DNA of 64,000 bases. Source: Dehalococcoidia bacterium. GTDB taxonomy: Bacteria > Chloroflexota > Dehalococcoidia > Bin125. The notes under the pieces were generated by a model. That model searched no databases, was not told the DNA's origin, and saw only the letters and a list, made by a program, of their open reading frames with translations. The stretch lies in the NCBI GenBank assembly GCA_965242485.1, contig CBDESM010000003.1:1357362-1421361 (forward strand), in the 5' to 3' direction. The position numbers were made by a program, and so were the translations under genes. Positions 28,503-36,339 of this stretch are shown piece by piece (positions within the stretch are counted from its first letter, which is position 1; the number at the start of each line of letters is the position of its first letter).

Positions 28503-29702
28503 CTACGCGCCGTTGCCCGTCACCGACGCGGGCGGCGGCGGCAGGTGGTAGATGCGCTCGGCAGTGTCGCGCAGCACCTTGCGGCGCACGCCCTCGTCGA
28601 GGTCGGTCAGCACCTCGGTGATGTGCTCCTGCGCCTTCGGGTAGAGGCAGGTCGGGTGCGGGAAATCGGTCTCGAACATCACGTTGTCCTCGCCGATCGC
28701 CTCGATCGTCGCGCGCGGCCCGAAATCCTCGAACCAGAACGACGCGTAGACCTGCCGCCGGAAGTACTCCGAGGGCTTCATCGTCAGGCCCTCGCGCTCC
28801 GTCGGCACCGTCTCCTGCCACTGGTAGTCCATCGCCTCCAGCAGGAACGGCACCCAGCCGATCCCGCTCTCGACCGAGACGAAGTTGAGCCGCGGCCAGC
28901 GCTCCAGCATCCCCGAGAAGATCAGGTTGATGATCACCTTGAAGTTGGTGATGAACAGGCAGATCGAGGCCAGCGCCAGCTGCCGCTGCGGCCCGTAGCC
29001 CTTCCAGACCAGCTTGTCGACCACGCCCGCGCCCGCGCCGATGTGGAAGTTGACCGGCATCTCCAGCGCGTCGCAGGCCTCCCAGAACGGATCCCAAGCC
29101 GGGTCGTTCAGGTAGGGCAGCCCGAACGCTTCCGGCGTGTCGCACATCGTGATCCCGGTCATCCCCATGTCGTGGATGCGCTGCAGCTCCTCGACCGCCG
29201 CCGGAATGTCCCAGAACGGCACCAGCCCCTGCGGGAACAGCCGCCCGTCGCCGGCCGCCTGGAACTCCGCCACCGCGTCGTTGTAGACCGTGCAGCAGAC
29301 GTTGCGCAGTTCTTCGTCCTCGATTTTGATGAAGTTCTGCGAGCCGAACCCGGCCACGTTGGGGTACACGATCTGCTGCGCGATGCCCAGCTTGTCCAGC
29401 AGCCCCAGCCGCGCCACGGGGTCGGTCGCCGCGGCCGACATCTCCTCGAACGAGCCCAGCCCGATCACCCCGTACTCCTTCGACCCGTCCTCTTTCACCA
29501 CCGTGAAGCCGGGCGGCCCGAAATCGATCTGCGACTGCCCGTCGGGCGAGATCGCCCAGCGCACGTCGCCGGCGTCGTTGGTGATGATGTGCGGCACCCG
29601 GTCCTTGAACTTCGCCGGCGCCCGCGAGGTCCACAGGTCGGGCGGCTCCGTGTAATGCGAATCGATGTCCACCACCGGGATCCCGTGCACGGTCAAGCTC
29701 AT
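28503..29702 (-). CDS. Amidohydrolase family protein (PF04909-like, ACMSD-type)
   Basis: Start MSLTVHGIPVVDIDSHYTEPPDLW with GAGGAG RBS. DxH...FHIG...ETDFPH metal-binding pattern. Confidence 0.7.
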   Translation of the reverse strand: MSLTVHGIPVVDIDSHYTEPPDLWTSRAPAKFKDRVPHIITNDAGDVRWAISPDGQSQIDFGPPGFTVVKEDGSKEYGVIGLGSFEEMSAAATDPVARLGLLDKLGIAQQIVYPNVAGFGSQNFIKIEDEELRNVCCTVYNDAVAEFQAAGDGRLFPQGLVPFWDIPAAVEELQRIHDMGMTGITMCDTPEAFGLPYLNDPAWDPFWEACDALEMPVNFHIGAGAGVVDKLVWKGYGPQRQLALASICLFITNFKVIINLIFSGMLERWPRLNFVSVESGIGWVPFLLEAMDYQWQETVPTEREGLTMKPSEYFRRQVYASFWFEDFGPRATIEAIGEDNVMFETDFPHPTCLYPKAQEHITEVLTDLDEGVRRKVLRDTAERIYHLPPPPASVTGNGA

Positions 29703-29791
29703 CTCAGGCTCCTCTCGCCCGTATCCAGCTTCCGTAATCCTAGCCCCGCCGGACCTTGCGGGGCGCGGCGGCCCCGCGATACTCTGGCCGC

Positions 29792-30268
29792 ATGTCCGAA
29801 GGCCGAACCCATCACGAAGTCGCCGAAGCGACCGTCGCCTATCCCGCAACGGGACTTGCCGCTTTGCGCGAGCGGCTGGAGGAGTTCGACGGCTGGCTGA
29901 CGCCGGAGCAGCACCGGGTGATCGACGCGGAAGAGGACGGGGTGCCCGTGCTCTGCTTGCAGCTCTGGGTGCGCGATTACCAGGACATCGGGGCGCGCTG
30001 GGAGGCGCGCGACACGGGCGAGCCGCATCCGCCCACGCTCTACGCCTGGCTCAAGTTCCGCTCCCACCGCAAGGACAAGGCCTGGACCGATGCGGAGATC
30101 GAAGCGGCGCTGGCCGACCTGCACCAAGGCGCGCGCGAGATCAAGGACTCCGAGCCGCTCGAACGATCTCCCGATCCGCCGCCGCCCGGCTACGACGATT
30201 ACGACGTCGAGGATTGGTTCATGGACCTGAGATACGGTTTCACATGGCAGCGTCATCTGAAGTCGTGA
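29792..30268 (+). CDS. Hypothetical protein (copy 1 of a tandem duplicate), occupying the antitoxin position upstream of a PIN gene
   Basis: 158 aa, start MSEGRTHHEV. The start context ctggcNgcATGTCCGAAG is shared with copy 2. Tryptophan-rich, protein-like composition. Overlaps the VapC start by 25 nt. Confidence 0.5.
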   Translation: MSEGRTHHEVAEATVAYPATGLAALRERLEEFDGWLTPEQHRVIDAEEDGVPVLCLQLWVRDYQDIGARWEARDTGEPHPPTLYAWLKFRSHRKDKAWTDAEIEAALADLHQGAREIKDSEPLERSPDPPPPGYDDYDVEDWFMDLRYGFTWQRHLKS

Positions 30269-30684
30269 TCGAGCGCCTGCTCGACACCAACGCCGTGTCG
30301 AACTCCCTCAAACCCCGGATCGCGGCGGCGGTCGCTCCCTACCTGCAGACGCCCGGAGCCTCCGCGATCTCGTTCCAAACCGAGGGCGAGCTGGGCGTTT
30401 GGGCCTCATCGCCGACCATCCCTGCGGTCCACGCGCGGCAGATTCGCGCGTTCGTGCGCGATGCGCCGATTCTCTATGCGAATGAAGCGGTCGTCGCCCA
30501 CTACATCACGATCGTCCGTCGCCGGCGCAACGCGGGCCAGCCCGAAAACGTCAAGGACGCCTGGATCGCCGCTACCGCTCTCGCCTACGGCCTGCCCCTG
30601 ATCACCTTCGACCGCCACGGCTTCAACGACATTCCCGACCTCGATCTCACCCTGCTCCGCCTAGCCGGCCGGCTCCCTCGCTAA
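30244..30684 (+). CDS. vapC: PIN-domain ribonuclease, VapC-like toxin
   Basis: MAASSEVVIERLLDTNAVS...DAWIAATALAYGLPLITFDRHGFNDIPDLDL shows the conserved acidic residues of the PIN fold. Confidence 0.7.
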   Translation: MAASSEVVIERLLDTNAVSNSLKPRIAAAVAPYLQTPGASAISFQTEGELGVWASSPTIPAVHARQIRAFVRDAPILYANEAVVAHYITIVRRRRNAGQPENVKDAWIAATALAYGLPLITFDRHGFNDIPDLDLTLLRLAGRLPR

Positions 30685-30693
30685 TCTGGCTGC

Positions 30694-31185
30694 ATGTCCG
30701 AAGATCGAACCCGGCACGAGTCCACCGAAACCGCCCCGAGGCTTGCCGCGCTGCGCGAGCGGTTGGAGACGTTTGACGGCTGGCTGACGCCGGAGCAGCA
30801 CCGGGTGATCGACGCGGAGGAGGACGGGGTGCCCGTGCTCTGCTTGCAGCTCTGGGTGCGGGATTACCAGGACATCGGGGCGCGCTGGGAGGCGCGCGAT
30901 GCGGGCGAGCCGCATCCGCCCGCGCTCTACGCCTGGGTCAAGTTCCGTTCCCACCGCAAGGACAAGGCTTGGGCCGATGCGGAGATCGAAGCGGCGCTGT
31001 CCGACCTGCGCCAAGGCGCGCGCGAGATCAAGGACTCCGAGCCGCTCGGCAGGTCCCCCGACCCGCCGCCACCCGGTTACGAGGACGACTACGACGTCCA
31101 AGACTGGTTCATGGACCTGAGATACGGCTTCACATGGCAGCCGGCTGCGCCCGCCCGACTTGATCGGGCAGGGCGGATTGCCTGA
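30694..31185 (+). CDS. Hypothetical protein (copy 2 of the tandem duplicate, no PIN partner)
   Basis: 163 aa. About 93% identical at protein level to 29792..30268 over about 150 residues, with a different C-terminal tail. Confidence 0.5.
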   Translation: MSEDRTRHESTETAPRLAALRERLETFDGWLTPEQHRVIDAEEDGVPVLCLQLWVRDYQDIGARWEARDAGEPHPPALYAWVKFRSHRKDKAWADAEIEAALSDLRQGAREIKDSEPLGRSPDPPPPGYEDDYDVQDWFMDLRYGFTWQPAAPARLDRAGRIA

Positions 31186-31233
31186 AGCGCGGACGACGGG
31201 CCGCATTCGCAGCGCGAATGCGGCCCGCTTGGA

Positions 31234-32102: not shown

Positions 32103-34937
32103 TTACTCACCCGGCTCCGTCAGCCGGCGGTTCGAGACCACGGGCTCCGAGGCCAGCATTCGCCGCAGCGGCGTCAGATCCGGCAGCCCCAGCACCTCCG
32201 CCAAGCCCGCATCCAGCCGTTCCCGCGCCGCGCAATCCGCCATCTCCGGCAAGGGCAGCAGCGTCTCCTCCGCCAATTCCTCGAACAGCGCCGCTAGCCG
32301 CTCCAGCTGCCCATCCGCCAGCTCGCGGACGTCGAGCACCGGCATTTCTTCCAAGTCGCCCTTCTTGAGGCTGACCCAGCCGCCTTCGGTTGTCGTTCGC
32401 GTGCCGAGCAGCGTGAGCAGTCCCAAACTGCTGTTCAGCCACAGCGCGAGGCCAAAATCATGCAGCTCTTCCGTGGTTTTGATCTCCCAGAAGACATTCG
32501 AGAGGACGTCCCGGTCGCATTTCATCGAAACCGTGCGGACGGTGTCCAAGCGCAACCGCTCCGCAACGAGCAGTCGCGCCGCCTTTTGCCAGAGATCCGT
32601 GGCGCTCTTCAATCTGCGTCCGGGTCGTGGTTTCGAGAGCGCTGCTAGATGTTTATTCGGTGCAACGCTCAGCGTTGTTCGTTCATTGGTGTCATGTCCG
32701 GCTACGAGCGGGTATGCCGTGTTGGTATCCGTATAGGTGAATCCGTCCAAGATGTCGCGGCGGTCCGGGCCGATGCTGCCGAGCTCGCCGAGCGGACAGA
32801 TTGGAAGCTCGGCTCTCGTCGACTGTCCTGGTACTTGGACCGTGCTACCGGCGAGCAGTGAGTGTGCTGCACGGGCGAGGTCGCCGCGCGAAAACTGCAC
32901 TCCGTCCCATTGTTCTCCCGTCGCGTCGCCTTGCGGCAGCGATATTGCTTCGCCGATGTGGCGGCCGTCGAGTTCGAGCAGGGCTGCGCCCGTTGCTTCG
33001 AGCTCGGCCGGGGGCGTCGCTCCGATCACGTCGGCGAGGCGGCCCGCGTCAAGCACGTTGTCGGGGTTTTCCCACAGATTCACGTAGGTCGTGCGCGACT
33101 CGCCTGTGTCCCCCTCCGCCCGTTTGGTCGCGATCAGCAGCGCTTCCGAGAGGTCGGTGCTGTCGGAGAAATTCCAGCGCTGCGGGTCGTGCGACGCGAT
33201 CACCATGTCCAAGCGGAAGTCGCGCTCGATCAGCGCCCGCGTCTGCTGCCACGAGCGGCCCGTGCAGACGGTCAGCGGCAGTACCAGCGCCAAGCGCCCC
33301 TCGCCGGCGCGGATTTTCGGCGTCACCGCGGCGACGAATGCAGCGCCGACGCCGGCTACGGCGGATGCGCCCTGCGACTTGAGCCGGGCCTTGATCTCGG
33401 ACTGGATTCGCGTCCGCTCCCTGTCCGGCAGGCTGCCGAAGAGCAGGCTCGAACGGGTGAACGGCGGGTTCATGATCGCCAAATCAAGCGGCGGCAGCAC
33501 CGCCGTATCAACTCCTTCTATTACCCCCCCCCCCCCCCCACTTATAGTATTCATCCCGCGTACCTTGGCGGGAGCAACGACCGCGACCGACTCGCCCGCG
33601 CCGAGCGGGTACTGCACGGCGGCCTCGCTCTGGCCGAGGAAATCGAGCGAGCCGAGCTTGACATCGTCGCTCGATGCTTCCAGCGGCATCACGTACAGGT
33701 TCATCCGGTCGAAGTGGATCGCCGGGTTCAGCATCGCCAAGCTGGTCGCCGCGAAGTGCACCGCCGAAAGCTGCACGTCGAACCCGTGCAGCGCCTGCTC
33801 GACCATCACCTTGTGCAGCGCGTCCTTCTTCTGCCCGCCCGCGGTCACGTGCCGCCGTTCCGCCTCCGACGCGACCGCCATCAGCAGCGTTCCGGTGCCG
33901 CAGGCGATGTCCGCGATGTTCAGCGAGGCCGGGAATTCGTGCTGCGCCCAATCCGTCTGCGGCGGCCACTGGTGGAAGACCAGCCGCGCCAGCATCGTCG
34001 CCGCCGGCACCGACGTGTAGTACGCCCCCGTGAATTTGGCGTCGGATAGCAGCGTGTGGAACAGCCGCCCCGACAAGTCGTGCCCCTCGACGTCGCGCGT
34101 CTGCCTGACCGCGTCGATCAGCGGGTCGATCACCGCGGCCTGCGCCGGCGCGGGCGCGTCGCAGAGGATGTCCAAGAGGTCCGCCGCCAGCTGGAAGACC
34201 GGCACGTAGTCGATCTCGTCGCAGATCGTGCGCCAAGCGTCGCGCAGCCCCGGCGCCCCGCGCTTGGCCGCCTCCGAAACCGTGGGCACCTGCGCGTGCG
34301 CGGCCGAGAGCCGCTCCTCGAAGGCGAGCGCGTTGAACAGCACCAGGCAGCCGATCCGCAGCGCCGCCGCCCGCTCCTTCTCCTTGTCCGACTCCGCGAT
34401 CGCGTCCGCGATCCGCTGCCCGATCCGCGCGTGCCGCGAGACTTCCTTGGCCGCCGTCTCCGTCGCGTAGCGCACCGCGCCGGCCGCCGCGGCCACGCGG
34501 TCGACGCCCTCGACGTGCAGGGGCAGCGCCCGCAGGAAATCGGCCAGCTGATGCGCGCTGCCGCTGCGCAGCTGCGGTTCCGGCTCGACCCGCTCCCGCG
34601 TGCTGTGCAGGTACCAGCTCAGATCCTCCGCCTCGGCTAGCGCCCGCCCCACGTCATCGGCCGTGTCCAGCCCCTGCGGATACAGCACCCCGATCCGCCC
34701 GATCGCGGCCGGGAACTCGCCGATTCGCTCCGCCAGCTGCGCGTCCAACTGCGCCCGTGCCCCCGCCCATTTGCACTCGACCAGCGCGAACTCGTCCCCC
34801 GCGAGCCGCTCGACGCGGATATCCGGCGCATCCCCGTCAAGCCGCTGCTCCGCCGCCGCCGCGATCCCCCGCGCCTTCAGCAACTCCCCCAGCAGCGTAT
34901 TCGCCGCCTCCTCCCGAGACCTCCATCGCCGCACCAT
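32103..34937 (-). CDS. Single-polypeptide nuclease + gamma-class N6-adenine DNA methyltransferase + C-terminal target-recognition region. Type IIL/IIG (MmeI-family-like) restriction-modification enzyme.
   Basis: 945 aa from ATG 34937 (MVRRWRS...). PD-(D/E)xK-like N-terminus (APDIRVERLAGDEFALVECKWAG). GAYYTS (the MmeI-type 'HYTS' motif X). Motif I IADIACGTGTLLMAV. Motif IV IMNPPF. A long C-terminal region. The listed ORF extends to a GTG at 35123 through a degenerate duplicated segment. Confidence 0.65.
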   Translation of the reverse strand: MVRRWRSREEAANTLLGELLKARGIAAAAEQRLDGDAPDIRVERLAGDEFALVECKWAGARAQLDAQLAERIGEFPAAIGRIGVLYPQGLDTADDVGRALAEAEDLSWYLHSTRERVEPEPQLRSGSAHQLADFLRALPLHVEGVDRVAAAAGAVRYATETAAKEVSRHARIGQRIADAIAESDKEKERAAALRIGCLVLFNALAFEERLSAAHAQVPTVSEAAKRGAPGLRDAWRTICDEIDYVPVFQLAADLLDILCDAPAPAQAAVIDPLIDAVRQTRDVEGHDLSGRLFHTLLSDAKFTGAYYTSVPAATMLARLVFHQWPPQTDWAQHEFPASLNIADIACGTGTLLMAVASEAERRHVTAGGQKKDALHKVMVEQALHGFDVQLSAVHFAATSLAMLNPAIHFDRMNLYVMPLEASSDDVKLGSLDFLGQSEAAVQYPLGAGESVAVVAPAKVRGMNTISGGGGGVIEGVDTAVLPPLDLAIMNPPFTRSSLLFGSLPDRERTRIQSEIKARLKSQGASAVAGVGAAFVAAVTPKIRAGEGRLALVLPLTVCTGRSWQQTRALIERDFRLDMVIASHDPQRWNFSDSTDLSEALLIATKRAEGDTGESRTTYVNLWENPDNVLDAGRLADVIGATPPAELEATGAALLELDGRHIGEAISLPQGDATGEQWDGVQFSRGDLARAAHSLLAGSTVQVPGQSTRAELPICPLGELGSIGPDRRDILDGFTYTDTNTAYPLVAGHDTNERTTLSVAPNKHLAALSKPRPGRRLKSATDLWQKAARLLVAERLRLDTVRTVSMKCDRDVLSNVFWEIKTTEELHDFGLALWLNSSLGLLTLLGTRTTTEGGWVSLKKGDLEEMPVLDVRELADGQLERLAALFEELAEETLLPLPEMADCAARERLDAGLAEVLGLPDLTPLRRMLASEPVVSNRRLTEPGE
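33524..33539. repeat. Homopolymeric C16 (G16 on the coding strand) inside the RM gene
   Basis: Read directly from the sequence: ttaCCCCCCCCCCCCCCCCactt. On the coding strand it encodes SGGGGGV in-frame, and it is flanked by unusually AT-rich codons. Confidence 0.9.
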
Positions 34938-34939
34938 GC

Positions 34940-35207
34940 CCCCATTGTCGCACAGCGCCCCGGCCGTCCCGTTTAACCGCGCGTGCCGCGAGATTTCCTT
35001 GGCCGCCGTCTCCGTCGCGTAGCGCACCGCGCCAGCGGCGGCCACGCGGTCGACGACCTCAATGTGCTGGGGCAGCGCCCGCCCCATATCCTCGGTCGTG
35101 TCCAGCCCCTGCGGATACAGCACCCTGATTTACCCGATCGCCGCCGGGAACGCGCCGATTCGCTCCGCCAACTGCGCCCGGGCCCCCGCCCATTTGCACT
35201 GGTGCGA
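34940..35207 (-). pseudogene. Degenerate duplicate of codons ~45–115 of the RM gene (contains an in-frame TAA)
   Basis: Minus-strand translation reads ...QCKWAGARAQLAERIGAFPAAIG*IRVLYPQGLDTTEDMGRALPQHIEVVDRVAAAGAVRYATETAAKEISRHAR. This is homologous to the RM gene segment KWAGARAQLDAQLAERIGEFPAAIGRIGVLYPQGLDTADD...SRHAR. About 90% DNA identity to 34420–34760. Confidence 0.4.
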
Positions 35208-35224
35208 TGGGTTATGCTAGATTG
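35195..35224 (+). promoter_or_regulatory. Candidate sigma70-like promoter (TTGCAC-N18-TAGATT) for the low-GC inserted gene
   Basis: It sits exactly at the junction between GC-rich repeat sequence and the low-GC insert, about 50 nt upstream of ATG 35275 (RBS GGAAGGGG). Confidence 0.2.
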
Positions 35225-35274
35225 AAAGCAACGGGGTGGCGAGTGTTGCTCCGAACACAGGAAGGGGCGGGGCG

Positions 35275-36141
35275 ATGCGCTGGGTACTTGTGGCTACAAT
35301 CGCGGTAATCGCAATTGCGCTGGTGGGAGCAATTCTATTTCTTTTTCAATCTGAGCAAGAGCAAGTCGAACCTCAGCCTACTCCACGCACATCCGTTGGG
35401 CGAACAGTCGTAGATGATGCGTATAATAATCCAGTTCCTGTGGATTTCAAGGATGGCAGCACAATTGACGTGCGTCCCGCAATTTTGATAACTGATAAAG
35501 ATGATTGGCGTTTGGCTGTGCAATTTAGACATAGATCAAGTCAACGGCAAAGTCAGCGCACCGTTCTTGGCAGAGTCAAGTCGTCGCAAATTGCTGAAAC
35601 GCGCATGGGCGATTGTTTTGCAAGCAAAGTTGTTCCTACGGGGGCAATAGTGCGCGACTCTGTATTGGCAGTGAAGGTCATCGCTTGTACGCACGATAAT
35701 GGCGATATTACACTTGGCATTCAAGGCTATCGCGCGAATGAACATGGCGATAAAGGCGAACGTTTCATCACCACACGTATTAAAAAAGAGCAACAACGTT
35801 CAGATATTTGGTTTAGTTCTACATTTACCAAAAATACTTACGATCTTATGCCGTGGCACTACACAGCACCACGAGCAGTGCCGACGTATCCTAGACAGTC
35901 TGATGTTCCGTCGTCCAGCCTTGAAGTTGATACAGGTGCTAGGTCGCGGGAAGTTTGTGATATTCACGGCGGGCGATGGACTGGGGGGCGATGCTTGAAA
36001 TATCACCAGCGCCCCATTGTTACGCAATCCGTAGAGTCTGCTTGCCGTGCCGTTTGGGGTGAGACGCAGCAATATTCAGAGTGTGTGTCTTTCTGTAAGT
36101 CAAATCCCACACTGCGGTCTCCAATGTGCGGGCGGCGCTGA
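35275..36141 (+). CDS. Hypothetical membrane-anchored protein encoded in a ~40% GC insert
   Basis: MRWVLVATIAVIAIALVGAILFLF (N-terminal TM) followed by a Cys-containing soluble domain. Composition strikingly different from the flanking ~70% GC DNA. No family recognised. Confidence 0.45.
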   Translation: MRWVLVATIAVIAIALVGAILFLFQSEQEQVEPQPTPRTSVGRTVVDDAYNNPVPVDFKDGSTIDVRPAILITDKDDWRLAVQFRHRSSQRQSQRTVLGRVKSSQIAETRMGDCFASKVVPTGAIVRDSVLAVKVIACTHDNGDITLGIQGYRANEHGDKGERFITTRIKKEQQRSDIWFSSTFTKNTYDLMPWHYTAPRAVPTYPRQSDVPSSSLEVDTGARSREVCDIHGGRWTGGRCLKYHQRPIVTQSVESACRAVWGETQQYSECVSFCKSNPTLRSPMCGRR

Positions 36142-36150
36142 TGTCCACCT

Positions 36151-36315
36151 TCACTCAACCAATGCGAACTTGCCTCTCGCCAGCCGCTCGACGCGGATAT
36201 CCGGCGCATCCCCGTCAAGCCGCTGCTCCGCCGCTGCCACGATCCCCCGCGCCTTCAGCAGCTCCCCCAGCAGCGTATTCGCCGCCTCCTCCCGAGACCT
36301 CCATCTCCGTGCCAT
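36151..36315 (-). pseudogene. Diverged 5' fragment (start codon + 54 codons) of an RM-gene copy
   Basis: Encodes MARRWRSREEAANTLLGELLKARGIVAAAEQRLDGDAPDIRVERLARGKFALVE*, versus MVRRWRSREEAANTLLGELLKARGIAAAAEQRLDGDAPDIRVERLAGDEFALVECK in the intact gene. Together with 34940–35207 it forms one split pseudo-copy of the first ~115 codons. Confidence 0.4.
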
Positions 36316-36339
36316 GCCCCCGATTGTCGCACAGCGCCG

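Follow-up and report, generated by a model that had tools for sequence, protein, structure and literature searches.

Phase-variable restriction–modification (RM) genes are textbook features of Neisseria, Haemophilus, Helicobacter and Campylobacter. The closest parallels to the gene described here are Campylobacter cj0031 and Streptomyces pglX. In Campylobacter jejuni, cj0031c encodes a phase-variable Type IIG RM enzyme with an intragenic poly-G tract, and its switching alters methylation and the restriction of phage growth (Anjum et al. 2016, PMC4889913). In Streptomyces coelicolor, a G tract in pglX, part of the Pgl (BREX type 2) system, is reported to cause phase variation of phage resistance (Sumby & Smith 2003, as cited in PMC4365076). 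In the phasevarions of host-adapted pathogens, the methyltransferase that varies in phase is a Type III mod or a Type I hsd enzyme (PMC5909438, PMC7383803). A full-text literature search returned no report of a phase-variable RM gene for Chloroflexota or sponge symbionts.

The window analysed here, a 64-kb stretch of DNA from a 69%-GC uncultivated member of the Chloroflexota, carries a G16 tract inside a predicted nuclease–methyltransferase gene. Judging from the allele comparison below, this tract is probably a real, heritable and hypermutable simple-sequence repeat, that is, a contingency locus in a single-chain Type IIG-like RM gene. The features of the locus, all on the minus strand, are as follows.

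32103..34937, minus strand: Type IIG-like fused nuclease–methyltransferase gene, 944 aa from the ATG at 34937; top Foldseek match BpuSI.
34503..34937, minus strand: N-terminal PD-(D/E)XK nuclease-fold domain, about aa 1–145, with the invariant P-D...E-C-K motif at 34770–34826.
33882..33911, minus strand: methyltransferase motif I, DIACGTGTLL, which binds AdoMet and precedes the tract in the gene; weak MTS and Methyltransf_25 matches, PADLOC MTase_II 1.7e-9.
33540..33554, minus strand: AT-rich five-codon insertion ATGAATACTATAAGT, coding for MNTIS and adjoining the 5' end of the tract; a feature of the window's lineage alone.
33524..33539, minus strand: G16 homopolymer, the proposed slippage-prone switch, Gly467–471 (ATG numbering); 12 other loci carry an orthologous tract, G13 to G26 long, at this site.
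33507..33523, minus strand: AT-rich 3' flank TAATAGAAGGAGTTGAT, source of the stop codons for both OFF frames.
33459..33470, minus strand: methyltransferase motif IV, NPPF, downstream of the tract; absent from every OFF-frame product.
32418..33017, minus strand: probable target-recognition region, aa ~641–840, untranslated when OFF; no other part diverges more among the 13 alleles with a tract.
34977..36321, minus strand: degraded duplicate of the first ~500 nt of the gene, in pieces at 36145–36321 and 34977–35200; context, not part of the switch.

The first-pass annotation gave the enzyme 945 aa; 945 is the number of codons including the stop, and the protein from the ATG has one residue fewer. 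The ORF in public collections begins at GTG 35123 and yields 1006 aa, its first 62 residues running into the degraded duplicate of the gene's own 5' end. This duplicate is split by a 0.95-kb insert of 48% GC. The upstream low-GC ORF gave no match in PHROGs, Pfam or NCBIfam. Neighbouring genes are a Glu/Leu dehydrogenase, a variably present UvrD/PD-(D/E)XK helicase, PIN toxin modules and Uma2.

The protein combines an N-terminal PD-(D/E)XK nuclease fold with a helical domain resembling that of HsdM and an N6-adenine methyltransferase domain, and its C-terminal region is variable. Foldseek with the full-length AlphaFold model ranks BpuSI first (3s1s, E 1e-8), followed by HsdM, DrdV, BsaXI, LlaBIII and PglX. 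Because this model is poor (pLDDT 59.8; tract loop <50 and predicted disordered), the N-terminal 290 aa were predicted separately (pLDDT 89), and the fold search with the N-terminal domain again placed BpuSI among the top matches. The PD...ECK motif, motif I and NPPF are invariant across the family. Taken with the nuclease fold and the Type IIG enzyme as best full-length fold match, they identify the product, as a prediction, as a fused nuclease–methyltransferase. The segment at aa ~641–840, modelled with low confidence, has a mean pairwise identity of 62–75% vs 85–98% elsewhere across the 13 alleles with a tract, and the C-terminal half of the gene has a dS well above that of the N-terminal half. 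Such hypervariability is as expected for a recognition domain, and the segment is probably the target-recognition region.

Endonuclease and methyltransferase on one polypeptide, a mark of Type IIG enzymes, are both predicted here from motif I, NPPF and the BpuSI fold match. Type IIG enzymes also carry their target-recognition domain in that chain and depend on AdoMet to cleave at a set distance from an asymmetric site. Membership of a curated family (Type IIG, N6_Mtase or Eco57I-like) was not found: Pfam gave only sub-threshold MTS and Methyltransf_25 matches, NCBIfam no significant match for the protein and a PDB profile search no match for it, and the PADLOC models REase_MTase_IIG (E 1e-3) and PglX (E 2.5e-3) matched weakly. 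BpuSI and DrdV/MmeI-type Type IIG/IIL enzymes (PDB 3s1s, 7lo5) share the order of N-terminal PD-(D/E)XK, helical connector, gamma-class N6-adenine methyltransferase with NPPF and C-terminal recognition region. They differ in showing 7–13% identity, TM-scores of 0.31–0.33 that come from a low-confidence model, and no family-level HMM match. The "Type IIL-like" label of the first-pass annotation is not established: no MmeI-family or other curated family matches, and the fold supports Type IIG-like only. Type IIL was dropped for want of specific support. What defines that subtype is modification of a single DNA strand. Pfam gave no MmeI-family domain; DrdV is the fourth Foldseek match, from the low-confidence full-length model. 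BREX/Pgl membership was rejected because partner genes are missing (no PglZ or BrxC in any locus). On the modelled evidence, the gene is accurately labelled as Type IIG-like, of an uncharacterised family. A search found more than 1,800 homologues, and this large family without curated annotation is flagged as a probable new Type IIG-like lineage. Distant plasmid homologues carry only the annotation "N-6 DNA methylase".

The homopolymer was first noted as a C16/G16 tract in this gene, and it lies exactly there: C16 on the plus strand, G16 on the coding strand. No other homopolymer in the window exceeds 7, the length of the next longest. All seven overlapping G10 matches in the window fall inside it, while 100 dinucleotide-preserving shuffles of the window gave a mean of 0.36 such matches and a maximum of 3. 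The tract is in frame and codes for SGGGGGV, with IMNPPF 19 codons downstream, in agreement with its description as just upstream of that motif. Its flanks are AT-rich in a GC-rich ORF, as was also observed at first pass: ATGAATACTATAAGT has 20% GC and TAATAGAAGGAGTTGAT 29%, compared with 68% for the gene, and both rank among the gene's most AT-rich 15-nt windows. Three other alleles (L058, L059, L060) share the MNTIS insertion of the 5' flank, so this insertion is not an assembly artefact of the window. G16 supplies the long simple-sequence repeat within an ORF that marks a contingency locus.

The second mark, a change of repeat number that switches the product through frameshift and truncation, is found in silico and in natural truncated products. 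With G13, G16 or G19 the full-length protein is read; at other lengths translation stops 0–5 codons past the tract. G15 leads immediately to TAA (33521–33523, the −1 change) and a product of 471 aa (ATG numbering), and G17 adds NRRS before TGA (33508–33510, the +1 change) for 476 aa. The OFF product retains the nuclease domain and the half of the methyltransferase that binds AdoMet; motif IV and the whole C-terminal recognition region are lost. The expectation that ±1 slippage would truncate the enzyme before these two elements holds in silico, and natural alleles with proteins of 465–572 aa ending at the tract bear it out.

These alleles come from 13 tract-bearing loci at the window site, including the window itself, drawn from independent assemblies. 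A tract absent or short in orthologues would have pointed to an artefact; the opposite was found, with tracts at the same codon position in 12 of 12 other orthologous loci. Four of the 13 are ON (window G16, L001 G13, L053 G13-T-GG, L052 G15) and nine are OFF, frameshifted exactly at the tract (L037 G15, L049 G26, L050 G15, L051 G14, L054 G13, L055 G16, L058 G15, L059 G14, L060 G13). Frame toggles between alleles with identical flanks, which supports the phase-variation reading proposed at first pass: in one identical-flank set G13 is ON and G14, G15 and G26 are OFF; a second flank type has G15 in the ON state and G13 in the OFF state. Each OFF allele becomes a stop-free ORF of >930 aa once one G is changed. 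L058 and L059 match over 6,590 nt apart from a single G in the tract, a hint of switching within a clonal population. Length polymorphism with ON and OFF states in otherwise intact genes, a further mark of contingency loci, is thereby present across the 13 loci. The 90%-identity protein clusters around the window protein and its nearest relative hold nine tract-truncated (465–572 aa) and four full-length proteins. Exact look-up of hypothetical truncated variants of the window protein found none on record, the real truncated relatives differing by a few residues. A JGI metagenome DNA scan for G12 plus the conserved downstream 32-mer gave 0 matches and added no alleles.

Homopolymers of this kind invite a technical explanation, in which the true length is fixed and in frame in each lineage and the differences and OFF states are sequencing, assembly or polishing errors. 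Runs of 13–17 G are hard on all platforms, and long homopolymers are error-prone in Illumina and long-read assemblies alike. With four of 13 alleles in frame, the ON share is about the one third that random length error would give, and the one-G difference between L058 and L059 could come from two assemblers of one sample. Yet the lengths span 13 to 26, beyond ±1, and OFF states recur across samples and platforms. Homopolymers of G8 and G9 are expected to be read accurately by both sequencing technologies, and a related gene carries, in another loop, an ON/OFF pair in just this range (L056/L057 G9 ON, L033 G8 OFF) with identical flanks. Error also gives no account of a long pure tract kept at one site between lineages whose genes differ at dS 0.4–0.9, nor of tracts arising at three separate sites. 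The technical explanation is improbable.

The loop with the G8/G9 pair is one of two other variable loops of related genes in which poly-G tracts occur with ON/OFF pairs; in the other, L011 has G13 ON and L038 G17 OFF. Among 47 species-level loci, G/C runs of ≥12 number three in the gene vs one in the flanks, a modest statistic (p = 0.027); for runs of ≥8 or ≥10 the gene is not significantly enriched (p = 0.25 and 0.15). The case of L025 hints that long G/C runs may gather in defence and surface genes. Some family members are broken outside the tract, L031, L039 and L041 by frameshifts and L036 and L040 by insertions, so function is lost irreversibly as well.

Such losses lend some weight to a second alternative, a non-adaptive hotspot that arose by chance in a Gly-rich loop of a dispensable gene, with OFF alleles as early pseudogenes and no selected reversible switching. 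The ancestral loop already read S-G-G-G-S-R-G with G-rich codons, and an ON fraction of about one third fits neutral length drift. Against this, no second lesion occurs in any of the nine OFF alleles at the window site or in either of the two at the other sites. Post-tract dN/dS is 0.09–0.43 in ON–OFF and OFF–OFF pairs, and the ON–ON values (0.14–0.27) lie within that range; by this measure the sequence beyond the tract is under purifying selection, with ratios of 0.1–0.4 even when OFF is compared with OFF. Although the lineages diverged long ago, 12 of 13 alleles keep the tract free of interruptions, and tracts recur at three loops of the gene while being rare in flanking DNA. A mere hotspot is an unlikely explanation.

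The OFF state itself might not be null. Transcriptional or translational slippage could restore some full-length protein, or restart at AAGGAG-N11-GTG could yield a split two-chain enzyme with altered activity. In the window and L060, both OFF-frame stops adjoin a perfect AAGGAG with an in-frame GTG 11 nt on, gene callers predict a 455–465-aa C-terminal ORF in OFF alleles, and the break falls in the loop of predicted disorder (pLDDT <50). Against this, AAGGAG simply consists of the codons of a conserved E-G. RNA polymerase slippage is documented chiefly for A/T runs, which also speaks against leakage through a G tract. As a programmed restart site in general, AAGGAG-GTG was rejected because the other flank types lack AAGGAG. 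A non-null OFF state of either form is very unlikely.

With phase variation as the preferred reading, slipped-strand mispairing at replication would gain or lose G's, as it does at such tracts in other bacteria. An in-frame length would give the full predicted enzyme and other lengths a truncated product. Since cutting and protective methylation lie on one polypeptide, both would be lost and regained together, and a natural population would therefore contain restricting/methylating cells alongside non-restricting ones. From allele comparison we infer both this within-population heterogeneity and its reversibility. The benefit may be bet-hedging, in which phage defence is set against the enzyme's cost, the risk of autoimmunity or a barrier to gene uptake. 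An epigenetic side-effect of the phasevarion type is possible.

Set beside the known systems, the tract in this uncultivated Chloroflexota is, as far as its sequence can tell, a contingency locus of the kind known from pathogens. Like cj0031c, the gene combines endonuclease and N6-adenine methyltransferase (predicted here), and an intragenic poly-G frameshift would switch the whole enzyme. The hosts differ, C. jejuni being a low-GC host-associated pathogen. There is no detectable sequence relationship, curated Pfam, NCBIfam and PADLOC Type IIG models barely matching the window protein, and the tracts of the window family are longer (13–26) and lie at three different loops across the family. 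As pglX is summarised in PMC4365076, it too belongs to a high-GC genome and to a phage-defence system, encodes an N6-adenine methyltransferase, contains a G tract and has ON/OFF states attributed to tract-length change; PglX is also among the window protein's fold matches. The first-pass remark that such loci are rarely described in high-GC genomes is thus fair, but pglX, on that summary, is a precedent. In contrast to the window protein with its invariant PD-(D/E)XK module, PglX lacks a nuclease domain and acts together with PglW, PglY and PglZ, whose genes are not near the window-family gene in any locus. Phasevarions resemble the window locus in that a simple-sequence repeat turns the DNA methyltransferase of a host-associated bacterium ON and OFF. 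Unlike it, they act as epigenetic regulators and their restriction partner is often inactive; in the window family the nuclease catalytic residues are invariant, which points to a defence role. Among the characterised BpuSI and DrdV/MmeI-type enzymes, we know of none that is phase variable.

If the switching is real, localised hypermutation of defence genes would extend to high-GC uncultivated symbionts. It would explain many of the "pseudogene" or "split gene" calls for this family in metagenome-assembled genomes, provide a natural marker for strain-resolved metagenomics, and might allow the methylomes of ON and OFF genomes to be told apart in long-read data that already exist. The samples PANK22-1 and NGUY21-1, whose codes matched no paper in a literature search, are probably sponge metagenomes. 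A broader reading is offered tentatively and is rather less than an even bet: in uncultivated Chloroflexota that are probably host-associated, the family might be a contingency locus invented again and again, with independent poly-G tracts in at least three surface loops and purity selected for mutability. Tract length would drift so quickly that at any one time about one third of lineages are ON, symbiont populations would be standing mixtures of restricting and non-restricting cells, and aa 641–840 would diversify by recombination. More speculatively still, the OFF state might give a split two-chain enzyme. Were this so, localised hypermutation, so far a hallmark of low-GC pathogens, would reach high-GC environmental symbionts known only from metagenomes.

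A homopolymeric tract lies in frame inside a restriction-modification (R-M) gene, exactly where the first-pass annotation had proposed a candidate phase-variation switch. The tract and its gene are as follows:

33524-33539, + strand: homopolymer C16 (G16 on the coding strand, -), by sequence inspection
32103..35123, - strand: R-M ORF, GTG start at 35123, 1006 aa, the version in public collections
ATG at 34937, - strand: preferred start of the R-M gene, 944 aa; homologues start at the matching position

No other homopolymer in the 64-kb window (68.6% GC) exceeds 7 nt. All seven overlapping G10 matches of the window fall inside it, against a mean of 0.36 and a maximum of 3 in 100 dinucleotide-preserving shuffles. 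G16 encodes Gly467-471, with IMNPPF 19 codons downstream (ATG numbering). The flanks, described from the start as AT-rich, are indeed among the gene's most AT-rich 15-mers: ATGAATACTATAAGT (20% GC) and TAATAGAAGGAGTTGAT (29% GC). Within them, five AT-rich codons (MNTIS) are an insertion confined to the window's lineage. In silico, G13, G16 or G19 yields the full-length protein (ON), G15 gives an immediate TAA and G17 a TGA after four extra codons (OFF); the flanks supply the stop codons for both OFF frames. The expectation that ±1 slippage truncates the enzyme ahead of NPPF is borne out here and in natural OFF products, from which NPPF and the last 470 residues are missing. A C-terminal fragment could restart at AAGGAG-N11-GTG downstream of the tract, a motif that is not conserved in other flank types.

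Typical family members carry the loop S-G-G-G-S-R-G in mixed codons, without a tract; the window's subclade differs. Twelve further orthologous loci (L numbers) were recovered from independent assemblies, with proteins 71-96% identical. A check for an absent or short tract found it pure or nearly pure at the same position in 12/12, from G13 to G26.

Alleles at the tract (OFF: frameshift exactly at the tract)
Window: G16, ON
L001: G13, ON
L053: G13-T-GG, ON
L052: G15, ON
L037 (OZ242037.1): G15, OFF
L049: G26, OFF
L050: G15, OFF
L051: G14, OFF
L054: G13, OFF
L055: G16, OFF
L058: G15, OFF
L059: G14, OFF
L060: G13, OFF

The position of the tract is conserved, its length varies between near-identical alleles, and an open frame depends on the tract alone. 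L058 and L059 show 0 mismatches over 6,590 nt, their sole gap being one G of the tract. Within one flank type G13 is ON and G14, G15 and G26 are OFF; within another, G15 is ON and G13 OFF. The L053 tract resembles a G16 that a single G-to-T substitution has stabilised. L058, L059 and L060 have the same unusual AT-rich flanks as the window; the flanks thus characterise the lineage and did not arise as an artefact in the window's assembly. Of the products in two protein clusters at 90% identity, one centred on the window protein and the other on its nearest relative (P0001), four are full-length and nine, of 465-572 aa, terminate or start at the tract.

Judged from sequence, the OFF alleles are not decaying pseudogenes. 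A one-G change of the tract restores a stop-free ORF of >930 aa in every one of them. Downstream of the tract, ON-OFF and OFF-OFF pairs give dN/dS of 0.09-0.43, a range that contains the ON-ON values (0.14-0.27), and the tract is kept between lineages differing at dS 0.4-0.9. Among the 13 tract-bearing alleles, aa ~641-840 (32418-33017 of the window) are 62-75% identical versus 85-98% elsewhere, and synonymous divergence in the C-terminal half (0.13-0.58) is far above that in the N-terminal half (0.03-0.05); together these suggest that recognition-domain alleles are exchanged by recombination.

Poly-G tracts, also bordered by AT-rich sequence, occur in two further variable loops of the family (sites B and C):

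Site C, L056 and L057: G9, ON
Site C, L033: G8, OFF; flanks identical to L056/L057; +1 G restores the frame
Site B (loop between VPG and IPLC), L011: G13, ON
Site B (same loop), L038: G17, OFF; +1 restores the frame

Across 47 species-level loci, the gene is enriched in G/C runs of at least 12 nt (3, versus 1 in a fourfold length of flanking DNA; binomial p = 0.027); at lower length thresholds the enrichment is not significant. The ON fraction of 4/13 corresponds to the one third expected under free drift of tract length and is compatible with fast switching. It would equally arise if OFF states and length differences were random tract-length errors, which is the main caveat. Such error accounts poorly for lengths ranging from 13 to 26, for OFF states recurring across samples and platforms, for three tracts maintained through evolution, and for the G8/G9 pair at site C; tracts of that length are expected to read accurately on both technologies.

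Some members of the family are inactivated by other lesions: frameshifts away from long runs (L031, L039, L041), an IS110-like transposase insertion in L036 (7779-9044) and a ~1 kb insert in L040 (7428-8401). In L034 (7875-8053) and L035 (7830-8110) the gene contains insertions of 180-280 nt that keep the frame and include short repeated motifs. Upstream of the gene, L038 (OZ242043.1, 3840-4700) has a G-rich repetitive stretch in which several runs of G8-G10 occur along with GGGGAGGGGATT-like repeats. In L017 (OZ241751.1, 4400-6000) a tandem paralogue lies directly upstream, and an intergenic G10 run right after its stop codon could affect the promoter of the second copy. In the Dehalococcoidia MAG OZ241849.1 (L025, 14769-14783), a C15 run (G15 on the coding strand) falls at codons ~4-8 of the gene for a 607-aa secreted protein with RCC1 repeats; this is another candidate poly-G contingency locus in the same bacterial group, here in a surface or secreted protein.

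The enzyme belongs to a family without curated annotation. Pfam gives sub-threshold MTS and Methyltransf_25 hits, NCBIfam no significant match, PADLOC MTase_II (1.7e-9) with REase_MTase_IIG and PglX near 1e-3, and a profile search of PDB sequences no match. More than 1,800 homologues are ~941 aa long; in a one-genome-per-species collection nearly all come from Dehalococcoidia/Chloroflexota MAGs, and distant plasmid homologues are annotated simply "N-6 DNA methylase". Invariant in a 26-member alignment are N-terminal P-D...E-C-K, motif I (AdoMet binding) D-x-A-C-G-T-G-T-L-L and motif IV N-P-P-F; residue numbers in alignment A1 (D40, E55, K57, NPPF 491-494) are ATG numbering + 1. AlphaFold modelled the full-length protein with low confidence (pLDDT 59.8; tract loop 439-480 <50); Foldseek nevertheless ranks the Type IIG enzyme BpuSI first among the matches to this model (full length, E 1e-8), ahead of HsdM subunits, DrdV, BsaXI, LlaBIII and PglX/BrxX. 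From the invariant motifs and these matches, the predicted architecture is a nuclease, a helical connector, a gamma-class N6-adenine methyltransferase and a C-terminal variable region. The initial label "Type IIL-like" found no specific support in Pfam, NCBIfam, PADLOC or the fold matches, and this predicted R-M enzyme is labelled Type IIG-like. Invariance of the nuclease residues favours a role in defence over a purely regulatory one.

Neighbouring genes encode a Glu/Leu dehydrogenase, a variably present UvrD/PD-(D/E)XK helicase, repeated 159-aa plus PIN modules and Uma2; no BREX/Pgl partner genes lie near the gene in the window or the compared loci. Immediate surroundings are:

29700-31200, + strand: array of two-gene modules adjoining the R-M gene; also in L001 and L049-L055
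31234-32085, - strand: 283-aa predicted secreted protein, directly downstream of the R-M gene
34977-35200 and 36145-36321: degraded second copy of the gene's first ~500 nt, split by an insert (35201-36144)
35236..36141, + strand: 301-aa insert ORF; transmembrane helix at the N-terminus, tail rich in Cys

The extra N-terminus of the 1006-aa version reads into this degraded copy (36145-36321 is 90% identical to 34767-34943). The insert spans 0.95 kb at 48% GC, and searches of Pfam, NCBIfam and PHROGs gave no match for its ORF. Where the insert lies, related loci have either nothing or the helicase gene. The 283-aa protein contains long stretches of (GS)n and (EGSG)n encoded by 6/12-nt tandem repeats; its segment is missing in L001 and L037, and a similar-size gene occupies the position in L059 and L060. 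Each module pairs a ~159-aa protein of no known family with a PIN-domain protein, in copy numbers that differ between strains, and the array resembles a toxin-antitoxin/defence island with the dehydrogenase and Uma2 genes at its borders.

In function, the nearest counterpart is the Campylobacter jejuni Type IIG enzyme cj0031c, in which methylation and phage restriction are switched by a poly-G tract (PMC4889913). Among high-GC genomes it is the pglX G tract of Streptomyces coelicolor (PMC4365076). Full-text literature searches found no report of phase-variable R-M genes in Chloroflexota or sponge symbionts. The mechanism is thus already known; new are the phylum, the unannotated enzyme family and the unusually rich natural ON/OFF polymorphism. 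By what is known of contingency loci, slipped-strand mispairing would change tract length reversibly and at high frequency. Restriction and protection would switch together, because nuclease and methyltransferase form one chain, and the benefit may be bet-hedging between phage defence and the enzyme's cost or barrier function.
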